A stretch of 64,000 nt of DNA, from NCBI GenBank assembly GCA_017999835.1, contig JAGNLA010000002.1, forward strand, positions 99,635 to 163,634, in the 5' to 3' direction. The notes beneath the pieces are model-generated. The model had not been told where the DNA came from and made no database searches. It worked only from the letters and a program-made list of their open reading frames with translations. The translations under genes were made by a program, and so were the position numbers. The stretch's first letter is position 1, and every line of letters starts with the position of its first letter. This stretch comes from Caldisericia bacterium. GTDB lineage: Bacteria; Caldisericota; Caldisericia; JAAYUI01. Below, in pieces: positions 14,533 through 44,733 of the stretch.

Positions 14533-17148
14533 ATGAAAAAAAGAATCTCAGTCATTTCAGCAGTTACAGCCTTTGCGCTGATTGTGTCACTGCTTCTTGT
14601 GTTTTCCGGATGTTCCAATGACACAAGCAAAGAATCTGTCCAAAAAATGTTTTTGGGCGGCCAACTCATCGAAAACACTTCACAACAGATATTTGCAAAA
14701 CTATCAGTCAATTTCCCGTTCAAGAATACACCGTATAAATCCAAAGTCGAAGGATTGCCTTCCAACTTTGAACTCTACGAAAATAACGTCATATACAGCA
14801 CATATTACCAAACAGAATACATGGTCAGTCCACCTGAAGGATCGTCCGGTCAATACCCTTACAAGATATTGATGACCTCAGATAAAGAAAAGTTCGAATT
14901 CGAAGGTGTTTTGACTGTTGGAAAACCATCCGATTCCCCGGATAGAGTTGGAGGAAATGTCGGTAAGACCGGATATCTTGGCGCAACAAACATATCCAAT
15001 TTTGCCATCACATCCAAGACGGAGATTGGAAAATTATTGATGGCAAACCCCGTTGTTTTCCCAAATGTCTGTGTCATCGGAACATCCAACGGCGAATTGG
15101 TTGGCGTGGACTTCAGCGGCAAAATTCTTTGGAGAGTCCAGATCACAAAAAACATCATCGACACACTCCAGCAATCAGGAAGTCTTGTAATTGTAAGCGA
15201 CAACTCTGGACTCATTTCGACCTTTGACATAGACAAGCTCTCCAAGGGGGAAGACAGAGCAGAAAACACCTACAGAATTCCTTCCACTCTCTCTGGCCCT
15301 CCAACAATCATTGACAAAGACATGATGGTCATCGGTTCAACGGATGGAAAAGTCGCGTGTCTTTCACTCCCTGATTTGAGAAAAATCTGGGAAATAGACA
15401 AAATTAAAGGAACCGTAATTGGTTCAATATCTGCCGTACCACTTGGCGAAGGTAAAGGCAATATTTACATCAACTCTGCGGACAAAAACACCTATATTCT
15501 CGACTACGAAGGCAATCTGCAGAAAAGGCTCGGGCACCCCGTTATTCCAATCGGCTCTCCATGCGCAAGCAACGACACCTTTGCTGTGTTGTCGGCAAAA
15601 AACCAACTTCAATTGAGATACAGCACAGGCCTCGAGGCCTGGATTGATTATTGCGAATTTGAAGTTGCTGGCATGCCGGTTATAACATCAGACCAAATAT
15701 TTGTTTATGGCAAAAACAAACTCAAATCAGTGTCACGAAAAGACGGGTCAGAGTTGTGGACAATAGATCTCCCTTCCAATATAAACGCAAATCCGGTTGT
15801 CATTGGAGACCACATCGTTATTGCTACCGAGAACAAAAACGTCAACGTCATCAGGGCAAATGATGGTTTGATTTCCTATTCATTCTCCATTGACGGATCG
15901 ATGGTCAACTGGCCATACCTTTACAATGACAGACTTTTCATTGTTGACAGGCGAGGAAGCCTATTCATTCTCTCAAAACCGGCAAACGGCAAAAGCAGCA
16001 AGTTCGACATGAGTCAGGTTGTTACCAATGGAGCCAGCACCCGACCCGACCACAACAACGTTGTAAACACAACCCTCCCACTCAAGCCAAAACTCCTCTG
16101 GTCGCTTGATGGCAGCTTTGCACCGGCCATCACGACAAAAGACAAGGTATACTTATATAACATCGACAAAAAGGAATTTTCCTGTCACAAAATGTCAAAC
16201 GGAAACCAAATCTGGAACATTCAAATTGAAGCCGCCGAAGGCATGTTCTACGGTTTCAGTATCACACCTGGCGCTCACGAAACACCAATGTTTTTCACCG
16301 AGAAAGGCTTGCTCCTTGGTACAAAAAACGGGCTTGTGCTTGTCGATCCGGATACGGGATCTGTTCTGAGCAGGTCGAATATCCAAGGCATCCCCCAGTC
16401 AGACGGAAACCTACTGGTCTGCACAACCGGCAAGGAATTGACCGTTGCCACAACAGACATGAAGAAATTGTGGTCAGTGAAAGGTGAGTATCTTTCGCCA
16501 AACGTCCTGATAGAAGGCGATTTCATCTACGCCGTCAAAAGAGGAGAGGGTGCCGGAAGATTTGACATCTTCGAAGCCAAAACCGGAAAGTCCATCTTCG
16601 ATATCTCAGACACATTGTTTGACATCTCAGCGGCCAAACTCATCTCAACCAAACAGTACATTGTTATCTCCACGATGCAGGGCCCGTGGGTCTACGACAA
16701 GATGGAAGCCAAAGTAAAAGGTACTTCAGGCACGGTCTCACTGACCAACATTCAAATTTTTGAATGCAATTACGTCAACAACAAACTCGTATGTTCAACA
16801 AACGATTTTGGACTCGATTTTGATCTCAAGACCGGTGAAGGTACTCTTTATGCTCCAAAAATAGACGAAAATCTAATTGTAATCAACAATGGAGGACACT
16901 GGATGTTCACCTCGACAAACTACGTCTGTTTGGGCATTATCCCGCCAAAAGAAAAAGTGGATATCAACACAGAGACAATGATGATATTTCCAAAATTGCT
17001 CCAGATTCGCAACATGAATTCGGATATAGTCGCATCAGTCAAAATTGAAGCCAACGACTGCGAAAAATACGGCATTGCCCTTGGTGGTTCAACAATCATT
17101 CTCTCCGAGATATGTGATGGAGCAAAATTAAGAGTATACGGGCCATGA
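14533..17148 (+). CDS. Large PQQ-like beta-propeller lipoprotein.
   Basis: Lipobox 'VFSGCS'. Multiple propeller-blade repeats. 871 aa. Confidence 0.55.
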   Translation: MKKRISVISAVTAFALIVSLLLVFSGCSNDTSKESVQKMFLGGQLIENTSQQIFAKLSVNFPFKNTPYKSKVEGLPSNFELYENNVIYSTYYQTEYMVSPPEGSSGQYPYKILMTSDKEKFEFEGVLTVGKPSDSPDRVGGNVGKTGYLGATNISNFAITSKTEIGKLLMANPVVFPNVCVIGTSNGELVGVDFSGKILWRVQITKNIIDTLQQSGSLVIVSDNSGLISTFDIDKLSKGEDRAENTYRIPSTLSGPPTIIDKDMMVIGSTDGKVACLSLPDLRKIWEIDKIKGTVIGSISAVPLGEGKGNIYINSADKNTYILDYEGNLQKRLGHPVIPIGSPCASNDTFAVLSAKNQLQLRYSTGLEAWIDYCEFEVAGMPVITSDQIFVYGKNKLKSVSRKDGSELWTIDLPSNINANPVVIGDHIVIATENKNVNVIRANDGLISYSFSIDGSMVNWPYLYNDRLFIVDRRGSLFILSKPANGKSSKFDMSQVVTNGASTRPDHNNVVNTTLPLKPKLLWSLDGSFAPAITTKDKVYLYNIDKKEFSCHKMSNGNQIWNIQIEAAEGMFYGFSITPGAHETPMFFTEKGLLLGTKNGLVLVDPDTGSVLSRSNIQGIPQSDGNLLVCTTGKELTVATTDMKKLWSVKGEYLSPNVLIEGDFIYAVKRGEGAGRFDIFEAKTGKSIFDISDTLFDISAAKLISTKQYIVISTMQGPWVYDKMEAKVKGTSGTVSLTNIQIFECNYVNNKLVCSTNDFGLDFDLKTGEGTLYAPKIDENLIVINNGGHWMFTSTNYVCLGIIPPKEKVDINTETMMIFPKLLQIRNMNSDIVASVKIEANDCEKYGIALGGSTIILSEICDGAKLRVYGP

Positions 17149-24893: not shown

Positions 24894-27800
24894 CTATGGG
24901 CGATATCCATATGGAAAATAGATGCCAACCTGTTTTGTCGAGGCATTCCAGGTTGTCTCAGCCTGAAAAGCGTCTGCCACGAACCTTACAGGTACAAACG
25001 TTGTCCCGTTCTTAACAACCGGTGGCGGGGAAACCTGAACCTTCATACCAGAAACAACCGCTTCGGGGCTACCAACAACCAACACTACTGATTTCCAACC
25101 TCTTTTGATGGTTATCATTTTTGTTCTTGCCTCATAGGCAACCGTACATTTGAGCGATTCAGCTATGAACCTGAACGGCACCATGGTTTTACCGGTTTTT
25201 GAGTCGATAAATGGAGTGCCGGAAATTGATATGGCTTTCCCATCGACAATCGCCTCTTTTGAACCAACTTTCATGATTATCGAAATATTGGGCGCAAGCG
25301 GCTGAGCCTGAACAGTTGACGGCAGTGCCAATGTTTTACCATAATACGGGGTCACCGTGATGGTGTAGATCGTCTCAAAATCAAGATTGTCAAGCTTGAG
25401 ACTTGTCGTTGACGCATCTAGGGTTTTGCTGGTTTTTGACATAACCTTGAGCATATATGTTTCTTCAATATCAACCTTGTAGCCTGTTGCCTGTTCAACA
25501 TTGTATGCTGGCTTTTCCCAGGTAATCATCAGCGATTGAGCCCCGGGTACAGCTTTCAAGTTGTTGACAACCCTGTCGGCGATATTTGAGGCCTGAACAT
25601 CAACCTTCACCGGGACGACAACGGCTAGTTCTTTGGTCGCAACAGTCACTGAACTCTGCCACGATCCTGGTTGAAGGTTTTCAAGAATGCAAACATTGAC
25701 ACGTTTGGACTGACCCTCTTCAACATGAAGAGACTCAACTGTTGCCGAAAGCGATGGGCTTTCTGTTGTTACGGCAAGATCAACTGCGCCAGGACCCAGG
25801 TTTTTTACCGTGAAACCATCACAAATATTTTTTGTCTGTCTTCTGGTGCCAAAGTCAAGAATAGTCTTGTCTATCTGGATTTTTGCCTGTGGTTTGTCCG
25901 ATTTCACATAGATGCCTGCTGAGTTTGAAAGCTCTGATTTCCCACCATCAGAGCAGATGGTCATGACCTTGTACTGATAGTATTTGCCCCACTCAACAGC
26001 ATTGTCGACAAACGAAGCTTCGGTCACCGGTGTGTTTGTGATCCTGTTATAGGTCTCATCGTTATCGCGCTTGTAGACATACCACCCAAGCGGATTTTCA
26101 ACCTTTGTCTTCCACGAAAGTTTCACAGAGCCGTTTTCAACCGCAGCTGTAACATCCAGGTTTTCATTGCATGATTGCTGCTCATCCTGACCGTACTGCA
26201 GATACCATAACGTGTGGGCTACTTTTGCCGAACCGTCGCTTGCGGTGACATGGAACCTGATTGTCTTTGGGTTCGCAAGGAGCTTGAGCGGTACCGGAAA
26301 CGACAGTCTGCCGTCTCCATACCTGATTCCTAAAAAATCGCCTGTTTTGGTCTTGGTTCCGTCAGGATTGAACCTGTAAACAAAACCAAGGGTTTTGGTC
26401 AGTTCAATTGTGTTGTCGATGCCTGCTGGATTGCCAGCTGTTTTTGGGATGCCTGTCAGAGGGTTTGCATCCTGGTCAACCCAGACAGTAACTGAGCCTT
26501 TATCAAGGTTTGACACGGTTATTCTCATGTAAAGATTGGCAGTGTCAGAAATACACTCCACTTTTCTTATGTCGAGTGGATAACCTCTGGCTGGTTCGGA
26601 ATAAAGCGTCTGATACTGCAGGTACATGAGCTTTCCCGGGAGTTCGTTCTTTGTTGAACAATCCCAGTCAGCCTCCACGGCCTTGAACGCTCCACAGGCA
26701 AACTTCGCCCTTATCTTGTCAGGGCTGCCTATCCTGTTCTTCTTGACTGTCATCTGGCAGATGCCCTTTTCAAAGTCGAGTGTGCCATCGTTGAGCGAAG
26801 GCTGGTTGTAGCCCATGCCTTTTGAGGCGGTGTAGAGTTTTGTTCTTACAGCTCTAGATTCAGTTGCCACTTCCATGATGTAATCTTCGTAGTTGTCACC
26901 AAACTTTATGCCTTCAAAGCCAACGTTTGGCTTGCCATCTGTGTCAAGCATCGCCCAGATCTTGAGGTCGCAATCGCCCATGCCTTTGAGGCTGTTTGCA
27001 AAGTTGAACACAAACTTCAGGTTCTCGTCGTCTTCGAAAACCTCGACTCTTGTCATGAACAGATGCTTGCCAACCTGGGGCTGGTTTGACCAGACAACTG
27101 CATCAGGGTTTGTCGCTGCGTTAACAGCGTATCTGGTTATCGGGAGAACGATGTTATCCCAAACAAGATTTACATGCTCGATGCCAGTTTGGTTTATAAC
27201 CGGTGAAGTCACAAGATATCTTTTGGTGTCAATCTTTTCGACTTTCCAACCGCTAACGGCGGTTGTGCCTGTCAGGTCATAGATGATGTGTTCAGGAGAA
27301 AGGTCAGGTTCTACGGTTTGATAAGTTCTTGCCACAACCTTGAAGTCAAGCTTGCAAGGATCGCCAATGGCCAGCCTTGGGATTGAGAACTTTATCTCTT
27401 TGCCTGAAGCCTTTGCGTTGGCCAGTCCACCGGTTTCAACCGTGTCTGATGAGCTTTGATCCCATCTGTCGATGACAAACTTCTGGTCGCCATAGGCTGT
27501 TGAGAATCTGGCAAAGAAATCCTCGCCACCCATGTTGTATGAACGCTGGTAGAGTTTTGGCATGCCTGTGGTCGGGTTGAGGTCGGTGTCCATGGCAATG
27601 GAGATGAATGGATCCCCAGAGATATCTTCGAGCTTTGCGTTGAGCGTTATCCTGACATTTATGTACTGTACGTCGTGGGAGATATAGACTTTGTCAACAT
27701 CAACAGGAAAATCTGCATTTATTCCCGAGTCCCAGACAATTTTTTCTTCTGATTTTATGTCAGCTGTAAATTTTGGTGAACCGATTGGTTCTACTGGAAG

Positions 27801-27941
27801 AGTGACATCAATGCTGGCTTGCGTACCAGTCTCGCTCATCATTGCCAATGCCTTGGTCGTCAGACTCAATGCCTGAGAGTCGTGTTGCGGAATCATCTGC
27901 AATAAAAGCATGGCGCATATAAGCGGAATCAGTTTTCTCAT
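24894..27941 (-). CDS. Large secreted protein (1015 aa) with Ig/Fn3-like repeats and two C-terminal CAO-N domains.
   Basis: Signal peptide. C-terminal 'GKTMVPFRFIAESLKC' and 'NGTTFVPVRFVADAFQAETTW' CAO-N repeats. Confidence 0.5.
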   Translation of the reverse strand: MRKLIPLICAMLLLQMIPQHDSQALSLTTKALAMMSETGTQASIDVTLPVEPIGSPKFTADIKSEEKIVWDSGINADFPVDVDKVYISHDVQYINVRITLNAKLEDISGDPFISIAMDTDLNPTTGMPKLYQRSYNMGGEDFFARFSTAYGDQKFVIDRWDQSSSDTVETGGLANAKASGKEIKFSIPRLAIGDPCKLDFKVVARTYQTVEPDLSPEHIIYDLTGTTAVSGWKVEKIDTKRYLVTSPVINQTGIEHVNLVWDNIVLPITRYAVNAATNPDAVVWSNQPQVGKHLFMTRVEVFEDDENLKFVFNFANSLKGMGDCDLKIWAMLDTDGKPNVGFEGIKFGDNYEDYIMEVATESRAVRTKLYTASKGMGYNQPSLNDGTLDFEKGICQMTVKKNRIGSPDKIRAKFACGAFKAVEADWDCSTKNELPGKLMYLQYQTLYSEPARGYPLDIRKVECISDTANLYMRITVSNLDKGSVTVWVDQDANPLTGIPKTAGNPAGIDNTIELTKTLGFVYRFNPDGTKTKTGDFLGIRYGDGRLSFPVPLKLLANPKTIRFHVTASDGSAKVAHTLWYLQYGQDEQQSCNENLDVTAAVENGSVKLSWKTKVENPLGWYVYKRDNDETYNRITNTPVTEASFVDNAVEWGKYYQYKVMTICSDGGKSELSNSAGIYVKSDKPQAKIQIDKTILDFGTRRQTKNICDGFTVKNLGPGAVDLAVTTESPSLSATVESLHVEEGQSKRVNVCILENLQPGSWQSSVTVATKELAVVVPVKVDVQASNIADRVVNNLKAVPGAQSLMITWEKPAYNVEQATGYKVDIEETYMLKVMSKTSKTLDASTTSLKLDNLDFETIYTITVTPYYGKTLALPSTVQAQPLAPNISIIMKVGSKEAIVDGKAISISGTPFIDSKTGKTMVPFRFIAESLKCTVAYEARTKMITIKRGWKSVVLVVGSPEAVVSGMKVQVSPPPVVKNGTTFVPVRFVADAFQAETTWNASTKQVGIYFPYGYRP

Positions 27942-28083: not shown

Positions 28084-28638
28084 CTAACCTATGTATGTTC
28101 TCTGCTTTGCTCGCGCAAGCCAGGATTTTTTTATCAGACGAAGGACTTTTGTTCCACCGGTTTGGGTGCCAAACGGGGTGAAGCCAAGTGACAATGCCAG
28201 CGAGAGGCTTCGAGTGTTCCCAGGAGTAATAAAGGTATCGACGAAATATATTTCGTATTCCCTAAATATCTCGTCTAGAACCATGGAGCAGGCATCCTTG
28301 CCAAAACCTTTGCCCCACATGGCCTTGTCACCAATGACAATGAACAATTCGGCTTTGTGTTCGACCTCATAGACATGGCAGGTGATGTCACCGATGATGT
28401 TGCCATCGACATCAATTGCCCAAAGGTAATCGTTGTTTTCGGTACAGCTTTTGAACCAGCGATGGCTTTCCGAGATCGCCTGCTGGATAGTGAGAGGACG
28501 CGCGGCCAAATCAGGAGACAATCCCATTGTCAAAAGGATCTCTGGGTCTGTCATCCAATGAGCACGTTGAGTAAGATCCTGTTCGACCATTGGTCGAAGC
28601 ATAACATTCTGTCCACGAAGAACCTTCTTGACGGCCAC
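28084..28638 (-). CDS. GNAT-family N-acetyltransferase.
   Basis: 184 aa. 'IGDKAMWGKGFGKDA' acetyl-CoA-binding motif. Confidence 0.8.
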   Translation of the reverse strand: MAVKKVLRGQNVMLRPMVEQDLTQRAHWMTDPEILLTMGLSPDLAARPLTIQQAISESHRWFKSCTENNDYLWAIDVDGNIIGDITCHVYEVEHKAELFIVIGDKAMWGKGFGKDACSMVLDEIFREYEIYFVDTFITPGNTRSLSLALSLGFTPFGTQTGGTKVLRLIKKSWLARAKQRTYIG

Positions 28639-28924
28639 CTGCGTCTCCTTTCTCTAGCTATAATACTCCTATCTATTAAAATAGGTTTAGTCAAACAAAC
28701 TGTCAATAGATTAATTTCATTAATTGGTAACATCCCAGAGGTATTGCAATCGAAACAAATCATCTCTAAATGACGTTTAGTCACACTTTTCCAAAAAATT
28801 CTCTATAAAATCGAAAAACATCTGTTTTCGGATGATTTTCGTTACATTGTTGCACATGTTCTCCTATCAATAGACAGTTGACCGGCAACGAGATGGTTAT
28901 ACAATTTTCATTCAGGAGTGTGCC

Positions 28925-29479
28925 ATGCCAACAAGAGAAGAAGCTTATCAGCTTGTGACATCCAAGATTGCAAACAAAAATCTTGTCAAGCACATGCTCG
29001 CGCTCGAAGCGATCATGAGGGAGCTTGCGCCAATGTTTGACGGTGACCCCGAGGTCTGGGGACTTGCCGGTCTTGTCCATGACATCGACTATATGGAAAC
29101 CGAAAAAGACCCTTACAATCACGCGCTTTTAGGCGCAAAAATGCTTTCCGAGTTGGGTTACGCGCCTGATTTAGTCAAGGCTGTTGCAGCCCACAACCCG
29201 GAAAATGGCACGAAAATAGAATCAAAATTTGACCTTGCCCTTCACGTTGGCGATCCCCTCACAGGCCTCATCGTTGCCTGCGCGCTCATCCATCCAGCAA
29301 AAAAACTCGAAACAATAGATGTAGATTTTGTGATGAATCGTTTCGGCGAAAAACGTTTTGCAGCAGGCGCTAACCACGACCAGATTGCACGTTGCGCGGA
29401 ACTTGGCCTCGAACTGCCACAGTTTATTGACATCGGGCTTCGAGCCATGAAGAAAATCTCAAAGGAACTTGGCCTATAA
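28925..29479 (+). CDS. HD-domain phosphohydrolase.
   Basis: 'GLAGLVHDIDY' contains the His-Asp doublet. 184 aa. RBS aggag. Its stop overlaps the next start (TAATG). Confidence 0.65.
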   Translation: MPTREEAYQLVTSKIANKNLVKHMLALEAIMRELAPMFDGDPEVWGLAGLVHDIDYMETEKDPYNHALLGAKMLSELGYAPDLVKAVAAHNPENGTKIESKFDLALHVGDPLTGLIVACALIHPAKKLETIDVDFVMNRFGEKRFAAGANHDQIARCAELGLELPQFIDIGLRAMKKISKELGL

Positions 29480-30921
29480 TGTCGGCAACGACAAGGCTGG
29501 TTCTCCTCACCCACACTAACGAACCCCAGCGAATCTGCACGGCAGCGGCAAGATTGTCATCATTGCCAGGTTCGCCAACTCAGATTCTCGATGAAACACC
29601 CGAGGGTGGCTATCCAGATTTTATCAGGCGAATTTTGTCGATGGGTCACCATTCAATCATGGAGCATGCCAACTTCACCATCGCCTTTGAAAATGTATCG
29701 GTGTTTGTGGAGCAGTTTGTCATCGGTTTCAGACTTGCCTCGTTTACAGTCAAATCCAGGCGTTATGTGTCACATGCTGACGCGGGCTACATCGTTCCCC
29801 AGATGTCAGCAGACGAAGGCTCAAACCTTTTTGGTGGGGACGACAAACCATATGTCGGACCAGAGTTTTACGGACCACTCTCTCAAAGATACCTCCACTA
29901 CTGCGAGGGGCTGTTTCTTGCCTACAAAAAACTCGTCGAAATCGGCATCTCCGTAGAGGATGCCAGGTTCGTTCTCCCATACTCTTTCAAGTCAAACTTC
30001 ATTGCCACCGGCAACGCAAGGTCATGGATTCACATGATTTATTGCGCCTTGCACGGCAAAGGCAAGAGGTACCAGGAAGTAAACTGGATAGGCGTCAAGC
30101 TGCTTGAGATGCTAACAAAAGAAGCACCGGCACTGTTTTCAAAAATCGACACCATAGAAAACGGTTCCTACCAAAAAGAGGAGCAGCTGGCAGCTATTGT
30201 TGCCAAACAAAAGCTTGAAAAGTCATTCGATCATCAAAAAGTCGAAATTCTCGAGCACACACCCGACCCTGACAGGGTTGTAGCCAAAACGGCCCTTGTG
30301 GGAGCTTCGCGCGCTCCTTCCGATGAAGTGGACAAGATTTTGACCAAGGACATGATTGCCGACACAGTCAGGATAGTCGATTCAAGCCTCCACCCAAGAG
30401 AATTTGAGCAAGCCGTTTTCACGTTCAGACTATCAGGCATGAGCCTGCCAACGCTTACCCATGTGACACGTCACAGGATGCAAGGTCTCATCGTTCCAAG
30501 CTTTATGGAGGCAGGACTCTCACCAAATATTGTCATACCGCCTGCTGTTGAAAAGAAACCTGAAGCATTGGCTATTTTCAACTCTGCCCTAACCCAGCAG
30601 AAGAGCTTCTGGGAAGCCATGGACAGGTTCGACGTTCCTCCTGAAAACAGGGTTTACGCTTATCTTTCAGGGCAGACAATCGATGTGATAACAACAATGA
30701 ACGTCCGCGAGCTTTTACATTTCTTCCAGCTTCGAACCTGCAACAGGGCTCAGTGGGAGATAAGGGATTACGCAAGTGAGATGCTCGCCCAGGTGAAAAA
30801 AGTCGCCCCCAATTGCTTTAAACGCGCTGGCGCCAGCTGCTTCCGTGACGGCAAGTGTCGCGAGGGCAGGATGACATGCGGCAGGGAACGTGAAATGAAG
30901 GAATACTTCGGAAAGCTGTAA
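29479..30921 (+). CDS. Fused tandem ThyX-like protein (two flavin-dependent thymidylate synthase domains).
   Basis: The N-terminal half has 'GHHSIMEH...GFRLASFTVKSRRY...EDARFVLPYSF..NARSW'. The C-terminal half has 'ILEHTPDP...TRHRMQGLIVPS' (canonical RHR-x7-S) and 'NVRELLHFFQLRTCNRAQWEIRDYA'. Confidence 0.7.
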   Translation: MSATTRLVLLTHTNEPQRICTAAARLSSLPGSPTQILDETPEGGYPDFIRRILSMGHHSIMEHANFTIAFENVSVFVEQFVIGFRLASFTVKSRRYVSHADAGYIVPQMSADEGSNLFGGDDKPYVGPEFYGPLSQRYLHYCEGLFLAYKKLVEIGISVEDARFVLPYSFKSNFIATGNARSWIHMIYCALHGKGKRYQEVNWIGVKLLEMLTKEAPALFSKIDTIENGSYQKEEQLAAIVAKQKLEKSFDHQKVEILEHTPDPDRVVAKTALVGASRAPSDEVDKILTKDMIADTVRIVDSSLHPREFEQAVFTFRLSGMSLPTLTHVTRHRMQGLIVPSFMEAGLSPNIVIPPAVEKKPEALAIFNSALTQQKSFWEAMDRFDVPPENRVYAYLSGQTIDVITTMNVRELLHFFQLRTCNRAQWEIRDYASEMLAQVKKVAPNCFKRAGASCFRDGKCREGRMTCGREREMKEYFGKL

Positions 30922-30924
30922 AAG

Positions 30925-32649
30925 ATGAAGAAACATCTCTGGGCTATCATCATTTTGATCATCCTGGCTGCAGGCCTGGCCTTGATTCAGTTCCGTTACC
31001 CATTGGCGCTCAACTACGACGGTGGTTACAACGCAGCAAACACAAACGCTCTTATGAACATGGACAAGATGCCGTTTTCAGGCTCTCCTATACTGCCTTT
31101 CTCCATTTCAGCGCTGTTTGGTTTGATTGCCGGTTCAGCATCAGCAGGCATCAAGATAGCTTCGACGCTGGCCTTGGTTTCGGTTGGCTGGATGATTTAC
31201 GCTTTCACAAGAAAAATCACAAACGACGAAATGGCAGGTCTTGCTGCTCTTCTTGGCTGGTGCGTCACGCTTGGCGTGTTCAACTACATTTACGGTTACC
31301 TCAAGCAAACCATCGCCCTGCCGTTCCTTGTGGGTGGGCTGATGACGCTGTACTTTGCCATTGAAGAAAAGAAGTTGGTTTGGTGGATCCTCTGGATTGC
31401 TGGCGCAATCGGCACATACCTGAGTCACACCCCTGCCTTCATGACCTATGCAGTTTGTTCAGCCTTTGTTGGCGCTGTCATGTTTTACAAGTCAACATAC
31501 AAGTATGCAAAAGTTGTTGCCATAATGCTTTGGGTGGGTATCGGACTTGGGTTGCTTTCAATCCCGTGGTCGGTGCCATTCCTTTCAAAATACGTGCCAC
31601 AGCTCTCACTTGGCGGATGGCGCACAATACTGATCTACATCAAAGGTCTCTTCTCCCATCGCTACCAGATGACTACAGACTTCAACCTGTTTGACATACC
31701 GGTTCTGCTGCTGCCGGTTGCTGGCCTTGTTCTGGTTTGGCTCAAGCAGAGGAAGCTCGGATGGTGGTTCTTTGCCTTCGGCTGCGGAGTGCTGTTCATC
31801 TCGTTGTTTGCAGTCAAGTATGAGTGGCAGGGGCGCAACATCATGACCATGTTTGTCCCGATAGCCATGCTCTCCGGTCTTGGCATCTGGGAGATGGCAA
31901 AGTTATTGTCAAAGGAAAAACTCGCAAGGGTCATCACTTCAATTGTTCTTGCTGCCGCAATCTTTTTCTGCGCAAACTGGCCACTGACACTAAAGCAGCA
32001 CGTTGCTGACGCAAGACCACTGGTCAACCAATCTCAGGTTGACGATTTGAAAACATTTCTTGGAACAAACGGCAAGGGTTCGGAATTTATCCCCAGCCTC
32101 TACGCGCGTCACGGTCTTCGTTTCTGGGCAACATACGCAACCGGCGATTATGTTGGCGTGCTTTTCTACGACTGGGACAAAAAGACTCTTGGCATCAGGC
32201 AGAGCCGCTCCGGTGAAGACCTTGGCCCGAGCCACACTCCGAGTAAAGGCGAGTATCTCCTGCTCTCAAAAACTGCGCTTTTTTCATGGCCAACCACAGT
32301 TTGTGCAGGAGAAAAGCTTAGAGCGTCAATTCCAACGAAAGCTCAGGAATACCTCCTGGTCGACCTTCGCTCCACTGACAAAATGGATGATGTCTGGATT
32401 GCGATAAGAGACAAAAACTGGGGTTTGCTCAAAAAAGTATACTTTAGGGACATTACCTATGGCACAAACAAAACTGGCATGCTTTTGACAGGAATCAAGA
32501 GAGGGCAATACTGGGTTCAGGTTGGTTATGACGAACAGAGTTTGCCGCCAGCAAAAATTGAGATAGAAGAAAATCTTCTGGAGTGGGCCACCACTGATTT
32601 TACTGTAAAGGCTCAATCACAGGAATATTTGATAATCGAAGCAAAATGA
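30925..32649 (+). CDS. Polytopic membrane protein (about 12 TM helices plus a C-terminal extracytoplasmic domain), possibly a GT-C-type glycosyltransferase.
   Basis: Hydrophobicity pattern only. The family assignment is a guess. Confidence 0.4.
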   Translation: MKKHLWAIIILIILAAGLALIQFRYPLALNYDGGYNAANTNALMNMDKMPFSGSPILPFSISALFGLIAGSASAGIKIASTLALVSVGWMIYAFTRKITNDEMAGLAALLGWCVTLGVFNYIYGYLKQTIALPFLVGGLMTLYFAIEEKKLVWWILWIAGAIGTYLSHTPAFMTYAVCSAFVGAVMFYKSTYKYAKVVAIMLWVGIGLGLLSIPWSVPFLSKYVPQLSLGGWRTILIYIKGLFSHRYQMTTDFNLFDIPVLLLPVAGLVLVWLKQRKLGWWFFAFGCGVLFISLFAVKYEWQGRNIMTMFVPIAMLSGLGIWEMAKLLSKEKLARVITSIVLAAAIFFCANWPLTLKQHVADARPLVNQSQVDDLKTFLGTNGKGSEFIPSLYARHGLRFWATYATGDYVGVLFYDWDKKTLGIRQSRSGEDLGPSHTPSKGEYLLLSKTALFSWPTTVCAGEKLRASIPTKAQEYLLVDLRSTDKMDDVWIAIRDKNWGLLKKVYFRDITYGTNKTGMLLTGIKRGQYWVQVGYDEQSLPPAKIEIEENLLEWATTDFTVKAQSQEYLIIEAK

Positions 32650-34034
32650 GGTTAAACATGAAAAAAGCACTTAGCATGGTTATGGCCATGGTTTTGGCCG
32701 TTTCGTTCTCAGCAGCGTTCTCTGGCTGCGGTTCCAACTCTCCAGGCAACAAGGTTCTCGAGGTTTTGAACTCGATAGGCAAGGGTGACTGGGCAACAGT
32801 GTATGACAAACTCCAGATATTCTCAAAATACACGGACAACAAAGAGCTTTATGTGGCCCAGATGGCTGAGTACGGCAAACCACTCGTTGAGTTTTTAAAG
32901 GATGCAAAACTCAATGTTGATTCAGAGATTTTTGAAAAAGAATGGTCTTTTGAGGGCAATAAGTTTTCAAACGTCACAAGGGTAACCGTCAGAATGGAGC
33001 CAGGCCAAACAAAGGAATGGCCAGCAGAATTCCCGTTTGCTGTCAGCCTTGGACAGACGCTCCAGTGCGAATGTCTTTACACGGACGAAAAGGATAACAG
33101 TGGCGTGATAATCAATATGGGTAATCCGCCCCAGGCTTTCTGGGTCTGGCTTGCAAAAAATGAAAATGAATACTCATCCCCGGCACCAATTTATGTTGTT
33201 TCAGACCCTGACCCTGAAAACCAGGGTAGTCCGGCTGTTGCCAGTTTTTATTGGATTTTTGATGAAAAATACAGCGGAAAATACGTAGCTGTTCCTGTCG
33301 AAACCTACACAAAAACGATTGTTGTGGCAATAAACCCAGAGAATGGCACAGTTGCTTTCGTCAAACAGGTTTTGCCTGAGCCAGCCATGGGAGAAGCGCC
33401 ATTTATGGAAGCAATTTTCAAACCATACGAGACGACAAGCGTAACAGCCGATTCCATCGCCACATTCACCCTACAGCCAAATCCTGAGCCGGTTTACAAC
33501 GAATACGCAAAAAAAGTCAAAGAGGCTGTTGCCCAGGTGCTAAAACTCTATACCATCCACAAAATGGGTAGCTATGGCATGTTCCATAGCAAATATCCAA
33601 ACGGTCTTTTGTCTGTTCGCAAAGGTTCAAAAATCGAGCTTCCTCCAGGCATGATTGACACAAAAGAGAGAAGCATTGTTGGTAACTCTTTCTATCCAGG
33701 AGGGAAGACGGCGTTTATAAAAGTCAGCTCTTGCGGAACATGCCAGAGCAAGGCACTGGAATTAATAAAGGAACTTGGCATATTTGGACTTCCACAGGAT
33801 AGAATAATTCTCGTATCCTCGTCAACAAAAGACAAACTGGTCGAGTTTGAGAAAAAAATTGGCAACGCTCACCTGGTCATTGATGATAAAGGAATAATAA
33901 GCCTTTCATTGATGGTCAACACCACACCATCCATGGTAATTGTTGACAAAAACCAGAAAGTTCTGGTATTCATGGAATCGAAGGATCTTGAAAACGGCAA
34001 CGCACTAAAAAGAGAACTCAACGAAGCGTTCTAA
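32646..34034 (+). CDS. Lipoprotein with a C-terminal thioredoxin-like (TlpA / redoxin) domain.
   Basis: Lipobox 'FSGCG'. C-terminal 'SSCGTCQSK' CxxC in a thioredoxin-like context. Its start overlaps the upstream stop. Confidence 0.5.
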   Translation: MRLNMKKALSMVMAMVLAVSFSAAFSGCGSNSPGNKVLEVLNSIGKGDWATVYDKLQIFSKYTDNKELYVAQMAEYGKPLVEFLKDAKLNVDSEIFEKEWSFEGNKFSNVTRVTVRMEPGQTKEWPAEFPFAVSLGQTLQCECLYTDEKDNSGVIINMGNPPQAFWVWLAKNENEYSSPAPIYVVSDPDPENQGSPAVASFYWIFDEKYSGKYVAVPVETYTKTIVVAINPENGTVAFVKQVLPEPAMGEAPFMEAIFKPYETTSVTADSIATFTLQPNPEPVYNEYAKKVKEAVAQVLKLYTIHKMGSYGMFHSKYPNGLLSVRKGSKIELPPGMIDTKERSIVGNSFYPGGKTAFIKVSSCGTCQSKALELIKELGIFGLPQDRIILVSSSTKDKLVEFEKKIGNAHLVIDDKGIISLSLMVNTTPSMVIVDKNQKVLVFMESKDLENGNALKRELNEAF

Positions 34035-35252: not shown

Positions 35253-37676
35253 CTATCGTTTTGATATTTTTATGACGCTTGTGACGGGCATGCCATCGAT
35301 ATCTGCTTGAAAGAACACCTCAAGATTCTGGTTGCGTGGTTTTGCAACCATAAACGAGGCCAATCCTTCGTGAGTAGTTCTTATCGAAATCGGAGGAAAG
35401 CCCAGCTCAGCCTGCATTGCCTTTGAATCGCCAATTGAGTATGAAATGTCGACCCACTTGCCGGCTACAGCATTCCCGGCAGAATCCAGCAGTGTCAGTT
35501 TAATTGTTGATATGGGTGTACCATCATCTTCAAGCGTGGTTTTAAGGATCGGATGCTGCTTTGGAGGAGGTGGGATGGAGAGCGTGACCGAACGGGCCAA
35601 ACCTGAAGTGAGTGTCGACACCGTTACCCTGACATCTTCGATGATCAGGTCTTTAAGTGCTGCTGCCAGATCGAGTTCAACCCACGCGCATCCGGTACGA
35701 TTTGTCCTTGTATTCTTTGGAAGATCCAGGAATACATTCCTGTCAGGCACCCAGCCGATCGCTCTACCCATTTCATAATCGATTCGTAATCTTTGGCCTG
35801 AAACAGGTTTGCCTGACTTGTCAAGAACCGATGTACTGAGAATTATGTTGCCATCTGCCGAGATACCCCAGGCAGCTTTCATGCTTATCTGTTCAGCGCA
35901 AGGGTCAAACTGACAGCTATCCGAGATCTTGGTTCCCGAAACCACCATCTGGCAGTCCACAGTCAACAGATACCTACCAGCACAGGCTTTGTCTGCTTTG
36001 ACAGGCAATCTGTATGGAATAAGCGAAACAAAGATTTCCTCCGGTGCAGATGCGATAACTTTGCCCACCGGCACAGACTGCTGGAGGATTCTGTCCCAAA
36101 GATGCCAAGACAGGTTCATGTTGCCAGTAACGGAGATATTTGATGTTACCAATATTTCTGGGGTGTCTCCAGAGGCCACGGGTTTAAGCCTTATGTCGGG
36201 CAGATTTGCTGGAAACTGGAGGTTTTTCTGGGTTGTTACAGTTACATATTCAAAGTCAGCCCGGATAAGTGGCTTGAGGAGAACCTGCTCCTCTCTGATC
36301 AGCATCATGGCATTGCCGGTTGAGGTTTGGAGAACTTCGTTTATGGCACCATCATCTGTTGAAACAGAAATTACCGATTTTCTGGTCACCAGTCGATTTG
36401 TCTGGTCGACAAGCGAAATATTCAACCACTTCTGACCATGATTTGCAGCCGTTTCAACGGCTATGGATGGTGTCCAAACTGATGTAACAATATTTGTGCT
36501 GATATAGGGGCTAACATTGATGACAGGCTCTTGCATATCAAAACCAAATGATCGGTCGGCTGCAACAAGCAGATATTGTCCAACAGCCATGGTTAATCCT
36601 GTCTCAATGGTTTCAGTTCCAAGGGTTGCCTCAAAGGCAACTTGATGTGAAGGCAACGGGCCAAGCAGGTTTATGGTTTTCCCGGCAGCGCCTTTTATTG
36701 TCAAAGTCGCTCCACCCCTTGCTTCGCCTTCAACAACAATCTTCCAGGCTGGGATTGGAAAATTTTCTCCGCTGCCCTGATCATCCAGGGGTGTTGCAAA
36801 AACACTAAATTCCCCGGATCTGACGTATTTATGTCTGAATGTACAGGTTGCCTGAGCGCCAGAGCAGTCAACATTCTGGCTGGTGCCGTCACCGAAATCT
36901 ATCCTGCAACCTGAAAGTCGCCCTTCAGGGTCAGTCAGATTCGTCTCGAAAATAACTTCCTGGTCGATGTTTGCTTTCTCGGGCCATGTGCCTGAAACCT
37001 GACCAATTGGAAGCTTGTTATCTATAACGGTTACCTTTGATGTGACAGGTTTTGAGATTGTGTTTCTGTCGTCAGTAACAATAAAATTGACAAGGTATGC
37101 TCCGGATTTCTCATATGCATGGGTTATCTTCGAAGTGTCACCAATATCTTCATAAGTTTTGCCATCGCCCATGTCCCACAGACATTTGACAACCTTGCCG
37201 TCTACGTCGGTGCCATGACCAACAAACGTCATGGTCTGGCCGGTTCTCCCGGGGAGCGGAAAAATCTGGTCGACAAAAGATGTTGGCTCAGCGTTGAGGT
37301 CTCTGGCTGCTATCTGCACCATAGCCTCGAGGCTTATAATGCTGCCGGAATCATTGATGGTTGCTTTTGCAAGAACATATCCCATGCCGGATTCCTGTGG
37401 GATGAAGACCGTTGAAGCTTCACCAGATTTGTCAGTGAGTATCATTTGGCTCTTCAATTGACCTGTTATCCCCTGCAGACCAAGGAATATCTGGACATTG
37501 GCGACAGGCACTGATTCTCTTGTTACCTTAAGCGATATCAACGATGTCGCCCTGATATCGACGGTCTGTGGTGATGCACCCATGCTTATGCTGTACCCGG
37601 CAGCGTTGACCGTTGCTGGAAAAACCGTAAACAGCATGGATATAATCAATATTGCATTGCGCAGGAAAACCATCAA
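35253..37676 (-). CDS. Secreted PKD / Ig-like repeat protein.
   Basis: Signal peptide. PKD signature 'WDMGDGKTYEDIGDTSKITHAYEKSGAYLVNFIVTDD'. Confidence 0.55.
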   Translation of the reverse strand: MMVFLRNAILIISMLFTVFPATVNAAGYSISMGASPQTVDIRATSLISLKVTRESVPVANVQIFLGLQGITGQLKSQMILTDKSGEASTVFIPQESGMGYVLAKATINDSGSIISLEAMVQIAARDLNAEPTSFVDQIFPLPGRTGQTMTFVGHGTDVDGKVVKCLWDMGDGKTYEDIGDTSKITHAYEKSGAYLVNFIVTDDRNTISKPVTSKVTVIDNKLPIGQVSGTWPEKANIDQEVIFETNLTDPEGRLSGCRIDFGDGTSQNVDCSGAQATCTFRHKYVRSGEFSVFATPLDDQGSGENFPIPAWKIVVEGEARGGATLTIKGAAGKTINLLGPLPSHQVAFEATLGTETIETGLTMAVGQYLLVAADRSFGFDMQEPVINVSPYISTNIVTSVWTPSIAVETAANHGQKWLNISLVDQTNRLVTRKSVISVSTDDGAINEVLQTSTGNAMMLIREEQVLLKPLIRADFEYVTVTTQKNLQFPANLPDIRLKPVASGDTPEILVTSNISVTGNMNLSWHLWDRILQQSVPVGKVIASAPEEIFVSLIPYRLPVKADKACAGRYLLTVDCQMVVSGTKISDSCQFDPCAEQISMKAAWGISADGNIILSTSVLDKSGKPVSGQRLRIDYEMGRAIGWVPDRNVFLDLPKNTRTNRTGCAWVELDLAAALKDLIIEDVRVTVSTLTSGLARSVTLSIPPPPKQHPILKTTLEDDGTPISTIKLTLLDSAGNAVAGKWVDISYSIGDSKAMQAELGFPPISIRTTHEGLASFMVAKPRNQNLEVFFQADIDGMPVTSVIKISKR

Positions 37677-42195: not shown

Positions 42196-44733
42196 TTGAA
42201 CAAGATTGTTATGCTTGTGTGCGCCTTGCTGGCCATTCCAGCATTTGGCATTCATAATTCGTCATCAGAGGACTTGCCCAAACCCTGGCCGCAGTTTGCC
42301 TGTGACATTGCGCACTCGTCTGTGGCTTCGGACAAATGGGACTACAAAACGTACAAAACACCGGCATGGATACTGACAATGAAAGGCACAGACGGATTTT
42401 CTCGAAATCCAGTCATTGACAAAGGCTTGATGGTTATCGCCGATTCACAGCGGATTTATTGCATGGACGTGATCTCCGGTAAACAGAAATGGTCATCGGA
42501 CTTGGTCAACGGATGTGGCGGATCCTGCGCAATAATAGGCGATCGCGTGCTTGTTCCGACGTCAGGGAACATTCTTTCAATCGATTTGGCCACCGGCAAC
42601 GTTCAGGCTTCCCTGAGCATCGGATCAGCAACATCGCCAAGTTTTTATACAGATGACTACAGCAATACAGGCTTCTACTTCGGAGTCCCTGGGAAACCAG
42701 GCTACGCTGCCAAATACGACATAGATTCAGGCAGGAAAAGATGGGAGATGCAGACTGAATGGGGTTGCCCGGGTGCAATCGCCGTCAACACTGAGGAAGG
42801 CATCGCCGGTGTAACATCCCACTACAGTATCTATGCTCTCGATGAGATGTACGGCTCAATGGAAAGCCAGATTGAGACAGGAACCCAGTCTTTTGCAGCA
42901 ACGTCAGCCATCGACAGGTTCTGCGTCTACACCATGTCAGGCGGTGAAACATATTTGCTGCCAAAACTTTACGAAAAGTGGAACCCGATGATCATCGACT
43001 GTGGAGGATTCACCTTCTGGCCACCTGCCCAGTTTGGCAAAACACTCATCCAGGGCAATCAGGATGGCAGGCTGGTCAACTTCGATTTAACAGGCAAGGT
43101 CATCTGGGATGTCCAAATGCCAGGGCCGGTGACAAACGGTTCAACGGTCATGGACGGAACCGTGCTTGTGCCTGTCGGTGGCTCGGACAAAACAAAGTCA
43201 GGTGTCTACATCATGGATGCCAAAACCGGCTCGCAGATAGATTTCATCAACATTCAAGCCGAGTATGTCTTCCAGCCAGTCGTTGCCTGGCAGAGGATGT
43301 TTGTCGAGTATGGAAAGAACGAAAAATATACCAGCCGCTGGCTTGCCTGTTACGGCAAAAAACCAAGACCAGCCGACCAGGAACCAAAGCTGACAATCAA
43401 AGATTTTGTCATCACGACACAAGTGGCGTGGATGGGCGAAACACTCAAACAGGCAACACTGACAAACTCAGGCAAGGTCAAGCTCGACCTGCTGCTGACC
43501 GGCGACACGCTCATCACTCCAACCGTTGAAACAATGACGCTTGCGCCAGGTGCATCGGAAACACTGAGGATAAAAATTGTCGGCAAAAACAAACCCGGCA
43601 AATACACGCAAAAGATAAACTGCCACATCACCGATCCCGATTATGGCGACCAGTCGCTTGGCTACATAACGGCAATCATCACCATCACTGAGGCTGCTCC
43701 ACCTGAACCGCAGGATCAGCCGCCAAACCCGCCAAGAGAGCTGCAGGCAAGGGTGGTTTACGACTACATTCAACTGGAGTGGAAGCAACCTGACAAAGGA
43801 ACAGAACCTCTTGGGTACAACGTTTTCAGAACCGTCGGCACCGATGCGTTTCCAAAAGACCCGATAAACAAGTCCAAAATCACCGACCTGACATACGCCG
43901 ACAAGGAGGTCATTGCCGGGCTGCAATACACCTACAAAGTCGTTGCCCTTGGCAAGGCTGGATTGGTGTCCGACCCATCAAACACCGCAACAGCCGAAAT
44001 CCCAATAAAGCTGCTGGCTGTCAAGAACCTGAAAGCAGAAAAACAAGGCGAGGGCGTGCTTTTGACCTGGGAATCCGAGCAGCCTGTGACTTTTGTAATC
44101 GAGCGCAACGGCGACCAGGTAGGCATGACCTCAAATCTTCTGTTTTCTGACACAAACCCTCCCCAGGAAAAACTTATCTACAAGGTGTTTCCGAAGAAAG
44201 ACAACCAGTTTGGCCCTGAAGCTTTTGTCATCATTGACCTTTCTCCCCAAAAGCCACCTGACCCAGACCCAAATCCGGAACCCGAGCCTGAACCGCAACC
44301 AGAGCCGACGCCTGAAGAAAAAGAAGTCAAAATCGTTGTCGAGTTCACGGTTGGCAAGGAGATCGCCACAGTCAACGGAACGGCCAAGTTTTCAGGCGCA
44401 ATCCCGTTTATCAGTAACGGCAGGATGATGGTTCCATTCAGGTTTTTGGGTGAATCCATCGGCGCAAAGGTCAGCTACACATCAGACCCAAAAACCGGCA
44501 AAGTGTTGACTGTTACTTATGAGCTTGCCGGCAAAACCGTCCAGCTGGTCATGGGCTCAAAGACTGCAATTGTTGGCGAAGACAGCGTTGAGCTTGACGC
44601 CCCTCCACAGATTTCAGGTGGCAAAACCTATGTTCCTCTCAGGTTTGTCACGGCAGCGCTGGGTGGGACCGTGGACTGGAACGCTACAGAAAAGAAAGCA
44701 ACGATAACATATATCTCGAAGGTGAAGCCGTAG
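42196..44733 (+). CDS. Secreted PQQ-like beta-propeller / Fn3 protein with a Pro/Glu/Asp-rich linker and a C-terminal CAO-N domain.
   Basis: TTG start with RBS AAGGAGG. Linker 'PDPDPNPEPEPEPQPEPTPEE'. C-terminal 'NGRMMVPFRFLGESIGAKVSY...GGKTYVPLRFVTAALGGTVDW'. Confidence 0.55.
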   Translation: MNKIVMLVCALLAIPAFGIHNSSSEDLPKPWPQFACDIAHSSVASDKWDYKTYKTPAWILTMKGTDGFSRNPVIDKGLMVIADSQRIYCMDVISGKQKWSSDLVNGCGGSCAIIGDRVLVPTSGNILSIDLATGNVQASLSIGSATSPSFYTDDYSNTGFYFGVPGKPGYAAKYDIDSGRKRWEMQTEWGCPGAIAVNTEEGIAGVTSHYSIYALDEMYGSMESQIETGTQSFAATSAIDRFCVYTMSGGETYLLPKLYEKWNPMIIDCGGFTFWPPAQFGKTLIQGNQDGRLVNFDLTGKVIWDVQMPGPVTNGSTVMDGTVLVPVGGSDKTKSGVYIMDAKTGSQIDFINIQAEYVFQPVVAWQRMFVEYGKNEKYTSRWLACYGKKPRPADQEPKLTIKDFVITTQVAWMGETLKQATLTNSGKVKLDLLLTGDTLITPTVETMTLAPGASETLRIKIVGKNKPGKYTQKINCHITDPDYGDQSLGYITAIITITEAAPPEPQDQPPNPPRELQARVVYDYIQLEWKQPDKGTEPLGYNVFRTVGTDAFPKDPINKSKITDLTYADKEVIAGLQYTYKVVALGKAGLVSDPSNTATAEIPIKLLAVKNLKAEKQGEGVLLTWESEQPVTFVIERNGDQVGMTSNLLFSDTNPPQEKLIYKVFPKKDNQFGPEAFVIIDLSPQKPPDPDPNPEPEPEPQPEPTPEEKEVKIVVEFTVGKEIATVNGTAKFSGAIPFISNGRMMVPFRFLGESIGAKVSYTSDPKTGKVLTVTYELAGKTVQLVMGSKTAIVGEDSVELDAPPQISGGKTYVPLRFVTAALGGTVDWNATEKKATITYISKVKP

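Follow-up and report, generated by a model that had tools for sequence, protein, structure and literature searches.

The fused thyX gene and its neighborhood

In the analyzed window, a 64-kb stretch of Caldisericia DNA, a double-length gene for a homolog of the flavin-dependent thymidylate synthase ThyX is situated between genes for an HD-domain metalloprotein and a polytopic membrane protein, and a lipoprotein gene follows (Table 1). Its product is identical to a deposited protein (P0001) titled 'FAD-dependent thymidylate synthase [Caldisericia bacterium]'. The HD stop codon overlaps the thyX start (TAATG), as had been read from the DNA in an earlier note on this locus. The best promoter match, roughly 20 nt ahead of the HD gene, is a probable operon start, as judged from its consensus. 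A riboswitch was also considered and rejected, as the leader (28600-29000) holds no THF, ZTP or other Rfam family. Within the window, tblastn with E. coli ThyA and T. maritima ThyX as queries found no second thyX or thyA, and a Tmk-family protein from locus L065 found no tmk.

Table 1. Features of the fused thyX locus (positions in the window)
Feature	Position	Strand	Basis or remark
GNAT acetyltransferase, divergent neighbor	28084..28638	-	Pfam Acetyltransf_3, E 1.8e-19
Best sigma-70-like promoter match, TTGACC-16-TACAAT, 10/12	28878..28905	+	Consensus match only
HDIG/HD-domain metalloprotein, 184 aa	28925..29479	+	Pfam HD, E 3.2e-10; TIGR00277 HDIG, E 3.3e-13
Fused tandem ThyX, 480 aa plus stop	29479..30921	+	Pfam/NCBIfam profiles, structure model
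N-terminal Thy1 domain, residues 9-218	29503..30132	+	Pfam, E 1.3e-39
N-half motif GFRLASFTVKSRRY	29725..29766	+	RHR changed to GFR; substrate/catalytic loop S-R-R-Y kept
Inter-domain linker, residues 219-256	30133..30246	+	Predicted helix 233-243 (secondary structure of the model)
C-terminal Thy1 domain, residues 257-445	30247..30813	+	Pfam, E 9.1e-34
Cys421, first of four invariant cysteines	30739..30741	+	Two residues past R419, the R174 equivalent
Cys-rich tail, residues 446-480	30814..30918	+	Outside the Thy1 model
Polytopic membrane protein, 574 aa, soluble C-terminal domain	30925..32649	+	About 10-11 hydrophobic segments
Lipoprotein, 462 aa, probable C-terminal thioredoxin-like CxxC domain	32646..34034	+	Lipobox

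The HD protein found no match in a PDB sequence search. The membrane protein is possibly GT-C-like: it scores 25.6 bits against PMT_2, below the cut-off of 26.1, and 2 of 7 orthologs match this family (E<0.01). In PDB searches its single sequence gave no match and the ortholog profile chance-level matches only, and its single-sequence structure model (pLDDT 40) was unusable. For the lipoprotein, the ATG at 32658 (MKKALS...FSGC) is the likelier start; all orthologs have a lipobox, and their C-x2-C and Pro-Ser are invariant. The ortholog profile matches 5um7, a 'thioredoxin signature protein' (E 1e-4), and scores against Pfam AhpC-TSA/Redoxin are 15-18 bits, below cut-offs of about 26.

Two complete ThyX domains in one chain

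Both halves of the 480-aa protein match Pfam PF02511 (Thy1) over the full model, with 136.4 bits for the N half, 117.3 bits for the C half and 249.5 bits for the whole protein against a cut-off of 24.8. Against the TIGR02170 equivalog (cut-off 87.9), the whole protein scores 175.1 bits, and the separate halves 98.9 bits (N) and 80.8 bits (C). Fold matches of a confident monomer model are to ThyX only. The two complete ThyX folds proposed in the earlier note are thereby borne out, and so are the features it had described: RHR-x7-S and the AQWEI helix in the C half, GFR in the N half, and a Cys-rich tail behind the C half. The linker shows little conservation among fused relatives.

Catalytic residues are partitioned between the halves

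Canonical ThyX is a homotetramer, each active site of which is assembled from three subunits. In that enzyme, R78 stabilizes FADH-, S88 and Y91 lie on an active-site loop, and H53 comes from the third monomer and stacks on flavin and folate (PMC11940539); dUMP is activated by R174, and the T. maritima mutants S88A, R90A and Y91A are impaired (PMC8316439). Equivalents of these residues were mapped against real PDB chains of Mtb and T. maritima ThyX (T. maritima numbering is used for the canonical residues), and conservation was assessed in 89 diverse fused representatives less than 50% identical to one another.

The N half carries H57 (equivalent to H53), S93/R95/Y96 (S88/R90/Y91) and R163 (R147), which are retained in 89 (H57), 87 (S93), 87 (R95), 72 (Y96) and 89 (R163) of the 89 representatives. 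It has no equivalents of R78, H79 and R174: position 83, corresponding to R78, is Arg in 0/89, and position 190, corresponding to R174, is M, A or L. The C half carries R331-H332-R333 (R78-H79-R80; retained in 89, 86 and 87, respectively) and R419 (R174, with AQWEI; retained in all 89), and N408/R410 are also kept. The equivalents of H53, S88, R90, Y91 and R147 are unconserved there; R391 of the window protein can be aligned with R147, and Arg occupies this position in just 11 of the 89 relatives. R80 is represented in both halves, as R333 and as R85 of the N half (88/89). Taken together, the two halves hold the full catalytic and substrate-binding set (H53, R78, H79, R80, S88, R90, Y91, R147 and R174).

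The same division is visible in the signature motif. The N-half family motif, (E/G)-F-R-L-A-S-F-T-V-K-S-R-R-Y, is highly conserved across fused relatives; in the window it reads GFR-x7-S, with RHR gone and the Ser retained. The C half of the window protein has RHR-x7-S, but its Ser is unconserved in the family (D in 25, S in 19 and P in 13 of 89). At the level of sequence, RHR-x7-S is conserved only in trans, the RHR being on the C half and the Ser on the N half.

The earlier note had pictured an asymmetric pseudo-dimer with one crippled half. The asymmetry stands, as the halves are not equivalent; the crippled half does not, since each half keeps what the other lost: S93, R95, R163 and H57 are near-invariant in the supposedly defective N half, and the supposedly intact C half is without their equivalents. 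These counts also bear on the idea that the N half serves as an inert scaffold or as a pseudo-enzyme with a regulatory part and that the C halves alone catalyze. The missing signature RHR of the N half (GFR in the window) would fit this idea, as would the retention of RHR and the LR...AQWEI helix in the C half. However, the C half lacks conserved equivalents of S88, R90, Y91, R147 and H53, the loop mutants S88A, R90A and Y91A impair T. maritima ThyX (PMC8316439), and H53 stacks on flavin and folate (PMC11940539). These residues are near-invariant in the N half only, and an inert domain would lose them; we regard this alternative as very improbable.

A proposed composite two-site architecture

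We consider it likely that the protein is a true flavin-dependent thymidylate synthase, one that converts dUMP to dTMP, fused and sub-functionalized into complementary halves. Its origin would lie in a single-domain ThyX of a 'Cys-tail' clade that was duplicated in tandem and then fused, after which complementary parts of the active site would have been lost from the two copies. The N half would contribute the flexible loop S93/R95/Y96, R163 and the folate/flavin-stacking H57, and the C half would contribute the flavin-contacting R331-H332-R333 and the uracil-activating R419. Given the complementary residue loss, two fused chains that pair up should resemble the ThyX tetramer, but with two complete composite sites in place of four. 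Two chains would form an N2C2 pseudo-tetramer in which two sites are complete, each combining the loop of one N half (N1), the RHR and R174 equivalents of a C half and the His of the other N half (N2); the remaining two positions would be without any of the key residues and catalytically dead. We infer the dTMP-forming activity, the quaternary arrangement and the number of live sites, all three, from sequence, and the placing of S88/R90/R147, R78/R174 and H53 on three subunits from cited text, the known T. maritima structures and conservation logic. Some positions of the predicted 'dead' site (E at 83, R307 and E310) show moderate conservation, so a different binding function may have arisen there.

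A conserved four-cysteine motif

C421, C454, C460 and C467 are invariant in the family alignment; C421 is found in 88 of the 89 fused representatives, the lone exception having a garbled C-terminus. The last three cysteines belong to the tail motif GPxC-x4/5-CPEG-x3-SCG, and the overall spacing C-x32-C-x4/5-C-x6-C recurs in more than 340 sequences. Residues 446-480 have no Pfam match, and the tail is modeled at pLDDT of about 88-93. The four cysteines, located on the half bearing the flavin and uracil residues, are common to fused ThyX and a very large clade of single-domain ThyX from anaerobes.

This pattern suggests an undescribed metal or Fe-S site beside the active-site Arg: the four cysteines probably bind a metal, which could be either an Fe-S cluster or Zn. 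A literature full-text search found no paper linking ThyX to Fe-S or Zn. Tentatively, and with more doubt than confidence, we propose that the site could be a [4Fe-4S] cluster through which ferredoxin or another low-potential donor feeds electrons to the flavin, which would define an NAD(P)H-independent, oxygen-sensitive 'anaerobe-type' ThyX class. If so, this class would be large and undescribed, comprising single-domain (Geobacter, Synergistota, Fusobacteriota) and fused forms, and of the two halves of the fusion, only the one forming the live active site would have kept the cluster. Conservation of the four cysteines also raises the prospect that the physiological reductant of ThyX, long debated, may differ in anaerobes.

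Distribution and relatives

Fused ThyX was identified in 592 or more GTDB species; Caldisericota, Clostridia, Desulfobacterota and Micrarchaeota are among the groups represented. As regards architecture, fusion is the standard form in this lineage, as seen at the Caldisericota loci and in the at least 592 species overall, a state of affairs that, if joined by demonstrated ordinary thymidylate synthase activity, the earlier note had named as speaking against its own proposal. The fused format is uncharacterized and common among anaerobes; many gut Clostridia (Oscillospiraceae, Ruminococcaceae, Acutalibacteraceae), sulfate reducers and Caldisericota appear to rely on it as their thymidylate synthase. 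In most Chloroflexi, a duplicated, uncharacterized ThyX is the only thymidylate synthase (Valas & Bourne 2009, PMC3224940), and one paragraph of that paper was the only prior mention of duplicated ThyX found by literature full-text search.

Both halves are nearest to the single-domain Cys-tail clade (E 1e-32 and 1e-45), with half against half reaching only 2e-4; single-domain relatives with the identical Cys motif hold the whole catalytic set in one chain. In a phage collection, a collinear fused copy was detected in one unannotated fecal contig (H1) only, the other matches being single-domain. One relative bears a fused Peptidase_C26 domain (gamma-glutamyl hydrolase family).

Genomic context across lineages

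All 11 Caldisericota loci have the HD, membrane protein, lipoprotein and GNAT genes alongside fused thyX, as against none of 74 loci of other lineages. In Caldisericota, the order is kept down to 54-57% ThyX identity, and the GNAT gene has the same relative position in all loci. Identity among the encoded proteins is 54-68% for ThyX, 59-67% for HD, 42-46% for the membrane protein and 33-37% for the lipoprotein. Across phyla, members of the HD family share 55-60% identity; outside Caldisericota they are found in unrelated contexts, not adjoining thyX. In the other lineages, tblastn detected a Thymidylate_kin-family gene within +/-7 kb of fused thyX in 28 of the 74 loci, and in 24 of those loci among the three nearest ORFs. 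In Clostridia, fused thyX adjoins thymidylate kinase or sits in a housekeeping block, as in Pelotomaculum (cysS-mrnC-thyX-rlmB-sigH).

One explanation of the Caldisericota arrangement is a functional module of HD protein, fused ThyX, membrane protein and thioredoxin-like lipoprotein, for example one performing envelope flavin/thiol redox chemistry linked to nucleotide metabolism. Tight packing with overlaps, a single promoter-like site upstream and an order kept in 11/11 Caldisericota loci, even at 54-57% ThyX identity, are consistent with it. Shared ancestry alone, however, predicts a conserved order within one phylum; no partner lies near fused ThyX in the 74 other loci, membrane protein and lipoprotein diverge much faster than ThyX and HD, and the predicted locations differ, the enzyme being cytoplasmic and these partners envelope proteins. 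We give this module hardly any credence: the partnership of HD, membrane protein and lipoprotein is Caldisericota-specific and probably not functionally tied to the enzyme.

The earlier note had taken the unusual operon partners as a hint of a role other than dTMP synthesis, a suggestion that finds no support, with the partners absent from all 74 loci of other lineages and with thymidylate kinase or housekeeping contexts there instead. A neofunctionalized ThyX-like methylase (acting on UMP or dCMP, or in hydroxymethylation, PolB-like), for which the HD protein supplies or processes the substrate, is improbable on several further grounds. Every documented residue for dUMP activation and methyl transfer is kept, the protein scores above the thyX equivalog cut-off, no biosynthetic cluster surrounds the gene, the HD link is limited to one phylum, and most Chloroflexi have no thymidylate synthase other than a duplicated ThyX (PMC3224940). 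The gene most likely encodes an ordinary DNA-precursor, or housekeeping, enzyme, and the HD-ThyX-membrane-lipoprotein operon is not a new system.

Implications

ThyX is a target for antibacterial drugs, and an active site built from three subunits has hampered mechanistic work on it. Complementary halves in a natural fusion would reveal which residues act from which subunit, and a two-site scaffold would allow one active site to be mutated without touching symmetry mates. Since the fused form is apparently the thymidylate synthase of many gut Clostridia, sulfate reducers and Caldisericota, what has been learned about inhibitors from homotetramers may not carry over directly to organisms with fused ThyX.

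Comparison with known systems

Chlamydial ThyX (C. trachomatis CT632) is about 529 aa long, biochemically active and possibly double-length; if so, it would be an experimentally validated fused thymidylate synthase. It is reported to be highly divergent (PMC6171736), and our literature search found no open paper describing its architecture. Two proteins of 523-528 aa (P0234 and P0266), considered as chlamydial ThyX, were rejected as single-domain ThyX interrupted by an intein. The duplicated ThyX of Chloroflexi (PMC3224940), likened here by description only, likewise has two ThyX domains per protein, and the distribution found here, at least 592 species, is far wider than that reported. Single-domain Cys-tail ThyX (Trichlorobacter lovleyi P0295, Geobacter sp. 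P0330, Haliovirga abyssi P0373 and Synergistota P0247) shares the Cys motif, but each chain is about 230 aa long and holds the catalytic residues complete; these proteins are presumably ordinary homotetramers with four active sites and four Cys4 sites.

Canonical ThyX (T. maritima TM0449, M. tuberculosis, PBCV-1 A674R, H. pylori) is a homotetramer, whereas here two diverged domains form each 480-aa chain, RHR/R174 and S88/R90/Y91/R147/H53 lie on different domains, two live sites per particle are predicted instead of four, and a Cys4 tail is added; solved ThyX chains in the PDB do not exceed 270 aa. PolB (PDB 4p5a/4p5b), which methylates UMP/dUMP at C5 in polyoxin biosynthesis, is a single-domain protein encoded in a nucleoside-antibiotic cluster; no such cluster is present here, the neighbors being GNAT, HD, membrane protein, lipoprotein and surface proteins. 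Leduc et al. reportedly engineered ThyX heterotetramers as laboratory mixtures of homotetramer point mutants, in which residues of different subunits complement one another in one site. Those heterotetramers are not an evolved fusion, and fused ThyX is a natural, fixed version of the same arrangement.

Domain architecture of the fused protein

The fused ThyX is a real feature, and the best explanation for it is an ordinary flavin-dependent thymidylate synthase of a fused, sub-functionalised kind with two active sites. The 480-aa ORF claimed in the earlier note is present in the window, and all motifs quoted there were found in its translation; an identical protein has been deposited before under the name 'FAD-dependent thymidylate synthase [Caldisericia bacterium]'. 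Both Pfam Thy1 and NCBIfam TIGR02170 (thyX) hit the protein in two stretches, and scoring the halves apart confirmed two Thy1 domains at residues 9–218 (E 1.3e-39) and 257–445 (E 9.1e-34), both spanning model positions 2–191 (model length 191). The N-half and C-half share only 21% identity (E 2e-4). An AlphaFold2 model built with 44 homologues was confident throughout, including the Cys tail (pLDDT 89.7, pTM 0.87). The proposed start/stop overlaps hold for the HD/ThyX (TAATG) and membrane protein/lipoprotein (ATGA) junctions, but the ThyX and membrane protein genes are separated by a 3-nt gap.

Coordinates of the features in the window
Feature	Position	Strand
GNAT gene (divergent)	28084-28638	-
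HD gene	28925-29479	+
Fused ThyX	29479-30921	+
Predicted dead-site positions (residues 83-84, 305-310)	29725-29730, 30391-30408	
C421 codon	30739-30741	+
Cys tail	30814-30918	+
Membrane protein	30925-32649	+
Lipoprotein	32646-34034	+
SIR2_2-domain protein	44866-46713	-
Large secreted/surface proteins	14533-17148, 42196-44733	+
Large secreted/surface proteins	24894-27941, 35253-37676	-

Catalytic residues are divided between the halves

Conservation was assessed in alignments of 120 close homologues, then of 44 selected ones, and then of 89 representatives of the fused type, drawn from a library of 50%-identity clusters. Thermotoga maritima numbering was verified against PDB chains of M. tuberculosis and T. 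maritima ThyX and against residue numbers in the literature. In T. maritima ThyX, H53 is supplied by 'monomer-3' and stacks on flavin or folate, R78 stabilises the anionic reduced flavin, and S88 and Y91 lie on a flexible active-site loop (PMC11940539); R174 activates dUMP, and the mutants S88A, R90A and Y91A are strongly impaired (PMC8316439).

Conservation of T. maritima ThyX positions in each half (counts among 89 fused representatives)
T. maritima	N-half	C-half
H53	H57 89	305: R 44, H 4
E58	E62 80	E310 79
R78	83: E 61, G 7, R 0	R331 89
H79	84: F 42, H 25	H332 86
R80	R85 88	R333 87
S83	S88 79	336: S 64, T 8
S88	S93 87	341: D 25, S 19, P 13
R90	R95 87	343: unconserved
Y91	Y96 72	344: unconserved
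R147	R163 89	392: V/I/A
N163 / R165	N179 71, R181 77	N408 75, R410 70
R174	190: M/A/L	R419 89
Q180-W-E	gone	Q425, W426, E427 retained

These counts indicate that the canonical residues, R80 excepted, are kept on one half apiece. The protein had been read as one intact and one crippled half; the halves are instead complementary, and the degenerate-looking N-half motif ranks with the family's most conserved segments. R391 of the window protein was aligned opposite R147 by HMMER, yet Arg occurs there in just 11 of the 89 relatives.

We take R78/R174 and S88/R90/R147 to lie on different subunits, partly on the basis of the T. maritima structures. In an N2C2 particle, like halves would be related by a true two-fold axis, and a live site would combine the loop and R147 equivalent of N1, the RHR and R174 equivalent of a C-half, and the His of N2. 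The symmetry-related alternative, built from the C loop, N RHR/R174 and C His, would lack every key residue, from which we infer a dimer of fused chains with two live and two dead sites. Positions in the predicted dead site are non-random (E at position 83 in 61/89, R307 in 73/89, E310 in 79/89); the inactive pocket may be retained for another ligand or for regulation.

A conserved Cys4 site and the origin of the fusion

Of the leads found here, the conserved Cys4 site most deserves follow-up. Four cysteines, C421 (two residues past R419), C454, C460 and C467, are invariant across the fused proteins but for one sequence whose C-terminus is garbled, and over 340 sequences share the fixed spacing C-x32-C-x4/5-C-x6-C. 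The Thy1 model does not extend into the tail, which no Pfam family matches. The fusion retains the motif solely on the half carrying RHR and R174. It is tempting to see in these cysteines a putative Fe-S cluster close to the flavin, and a structural Zn is just as possible; the searchable literature yielded no metal or Fe-S site in ThyX.

The motif LRxC-x32-GPxC-x4/5-CPEG-x3-SCG is not fusion-specific and marks a very large single-domain ThyX clade (P0226, P0247, P0295, P0330, P0373 and others). The 120 single-domain relatives retrieved from a search with at least 7999 matching proteins all carry it, among them those of Trichlorobacter lovleyi, Geobacter sp. and Haliovirga abyssi. The clade covers Geobacter/Trichlorobacter, Synergistota, Fusobacteriota, and Nitrospirae and Planctomycetota MAGs; the organisms named are presumably almost all anaerobes. 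Two Cys-tail members, P0234 (528 aa) and P0266 (523 aa), each contain an intein that bears an HNH-like insert and sits directly before the SQxSQRY active-site loop (Intein_splicing E 9.6e-14).

True single-domain ThyX proteins (~230 aa) with the identical cysteine motif carry the full catalytic set in one chain. Both window halves are far closer to these (E 1e-32 and 1e-45) than to each other or to T. maritima ThyX (E 1e-9 and 1e-7). The simplest history would be tandem duplication and fusion of a single-domain Cys-motif thyX, then complementary loss. Three C-half-like relatives, P0191, P0222 and P0240 (222–237 aa), have RHR, R174 and the Cys tail and lack the S88/R90/Y91/R147 equivalents; they are probably partial sequences from short contigs, but may instead represent the fused enzyme split over two genes.

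Gene neighbourhood

The operon partners had been taken to hint at a role other than dTMP synthesis, a suggestion that the wider context does not support: divergent GNAT, HD, membrane protein and lipoprotein genes accompany fused ThyX in 11/11 Caldisericota loci, down to 54% ThyX identity, and in 0/74 loci of other lineages. In our view the cluster is an arrangement particular to this lineage, and nothing about it calls a dTMP role into question. No riboswitch was found upstream of the window operon. The HD protein is one of a well conserved group of ~183-aa HDIG proteins without known function, found outside Caldisericota in eno-secG-PPase-4HBT-HD-rnr-smpB order or adjoining purF, with thyX never adjacent in the loci examined; the Firmicutes context may indicate a housekeeping function with no link to thymidylate. 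In Carboxydothermus and Sporotomaculum (L086, L087) the order eno-secG-H+-PPase-4HBT thioesterase-HD-(rnr)-smpB recurs. The lipoprotein combines a lipobox with a C-terminal CxxC domain resembling extracytoplasmic thioredoxins at modest significance, and the polytopic membrane protein gave a weak, inconsistent PMT_2 signal.

Among the 74 non-Caldisericota loci, a thymidylate-kinase-family gene (PF02223) lies within the +/-7 kb flanks in 28, mostly ~600 bp upstream and divergent, and within the three nearest ORFs in 24. A divergent pair, a small cupin (Cupin_2) and a thymidylate-kinase/dNK-family kinase, precedes fused thyX in 24 Clostridia loci (L027, L033, L045, L065 and others); it recurs in Oscillospirales-type genomes, often followed by an LPG_synthase_C-domain protein. 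In Pelotomaculum the context is gltX-cysE-cysS-mrnC-thyX-...-rlmB-yacP-sigH.

Several very large secreted or surface proteins, with domains including PQQ-like beta-propeller and Cu_amine_oxidN1, surround the cluster in the window and likewise in related Caldisericota loci (L001, L005). A 615-aa SIR2_2-domain protein adjoins argS in the lowest-GC stretch of the window (37% vs ~46%); its gene may be of defence type and have arrived by horizontal transfer.

Distribution and comparison with known ThyX proteins

A word-indexed search with the fused ThyX returned 2356 proteins at E<=1e-5, the best 120 all of 450–511 aa; an exhaustive search of 50% clusters gave 169 representatives at E<=1e-30, with 96 of the 150 listed reaching at least 400 aa. 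Scanning GTDB species representatives with N-half-specific peptides confirmed at least 592 fused loci, of which the best 80 fall in Caldisericota, Desulfobacterota (including cultured Desulfoluna and Desulfobotulus), many Clostridia families, Micrarchaeota and one Spirochaetia MAG. One relative, P0162 (638 aa), adds a C-terminal Peptidase_C26/GATase domain (E 2.5e-51) to the two-domain protein; Peptidase_C26 is the gamma-glutamyl hydrolase family, so this fusion may tie the enzyme to folylpolyglutamate handling. In the phage collection, an unannotated 'Bacteriophage sp.' contig from human faeces (MT835736.1, 16506–17807) encodes a collinear full-length fused ThyX (38% identity, 96% coverage), which may be a mis-binned bacterial fragment; all other matches there are single-domain.

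No solved ThyX structure above 270 aa was found among PDB chains, and no description of duplicated ThyX was found in the searchable literature beyond one 2009 mention of it as the only thymidylate synthase in most Chloroflexi (PMC3224940). The fused two-site format is common in anaerobes, noted once before and never characterised. The chlamydial ThyX, at ~529 aa, is enzymatically active.
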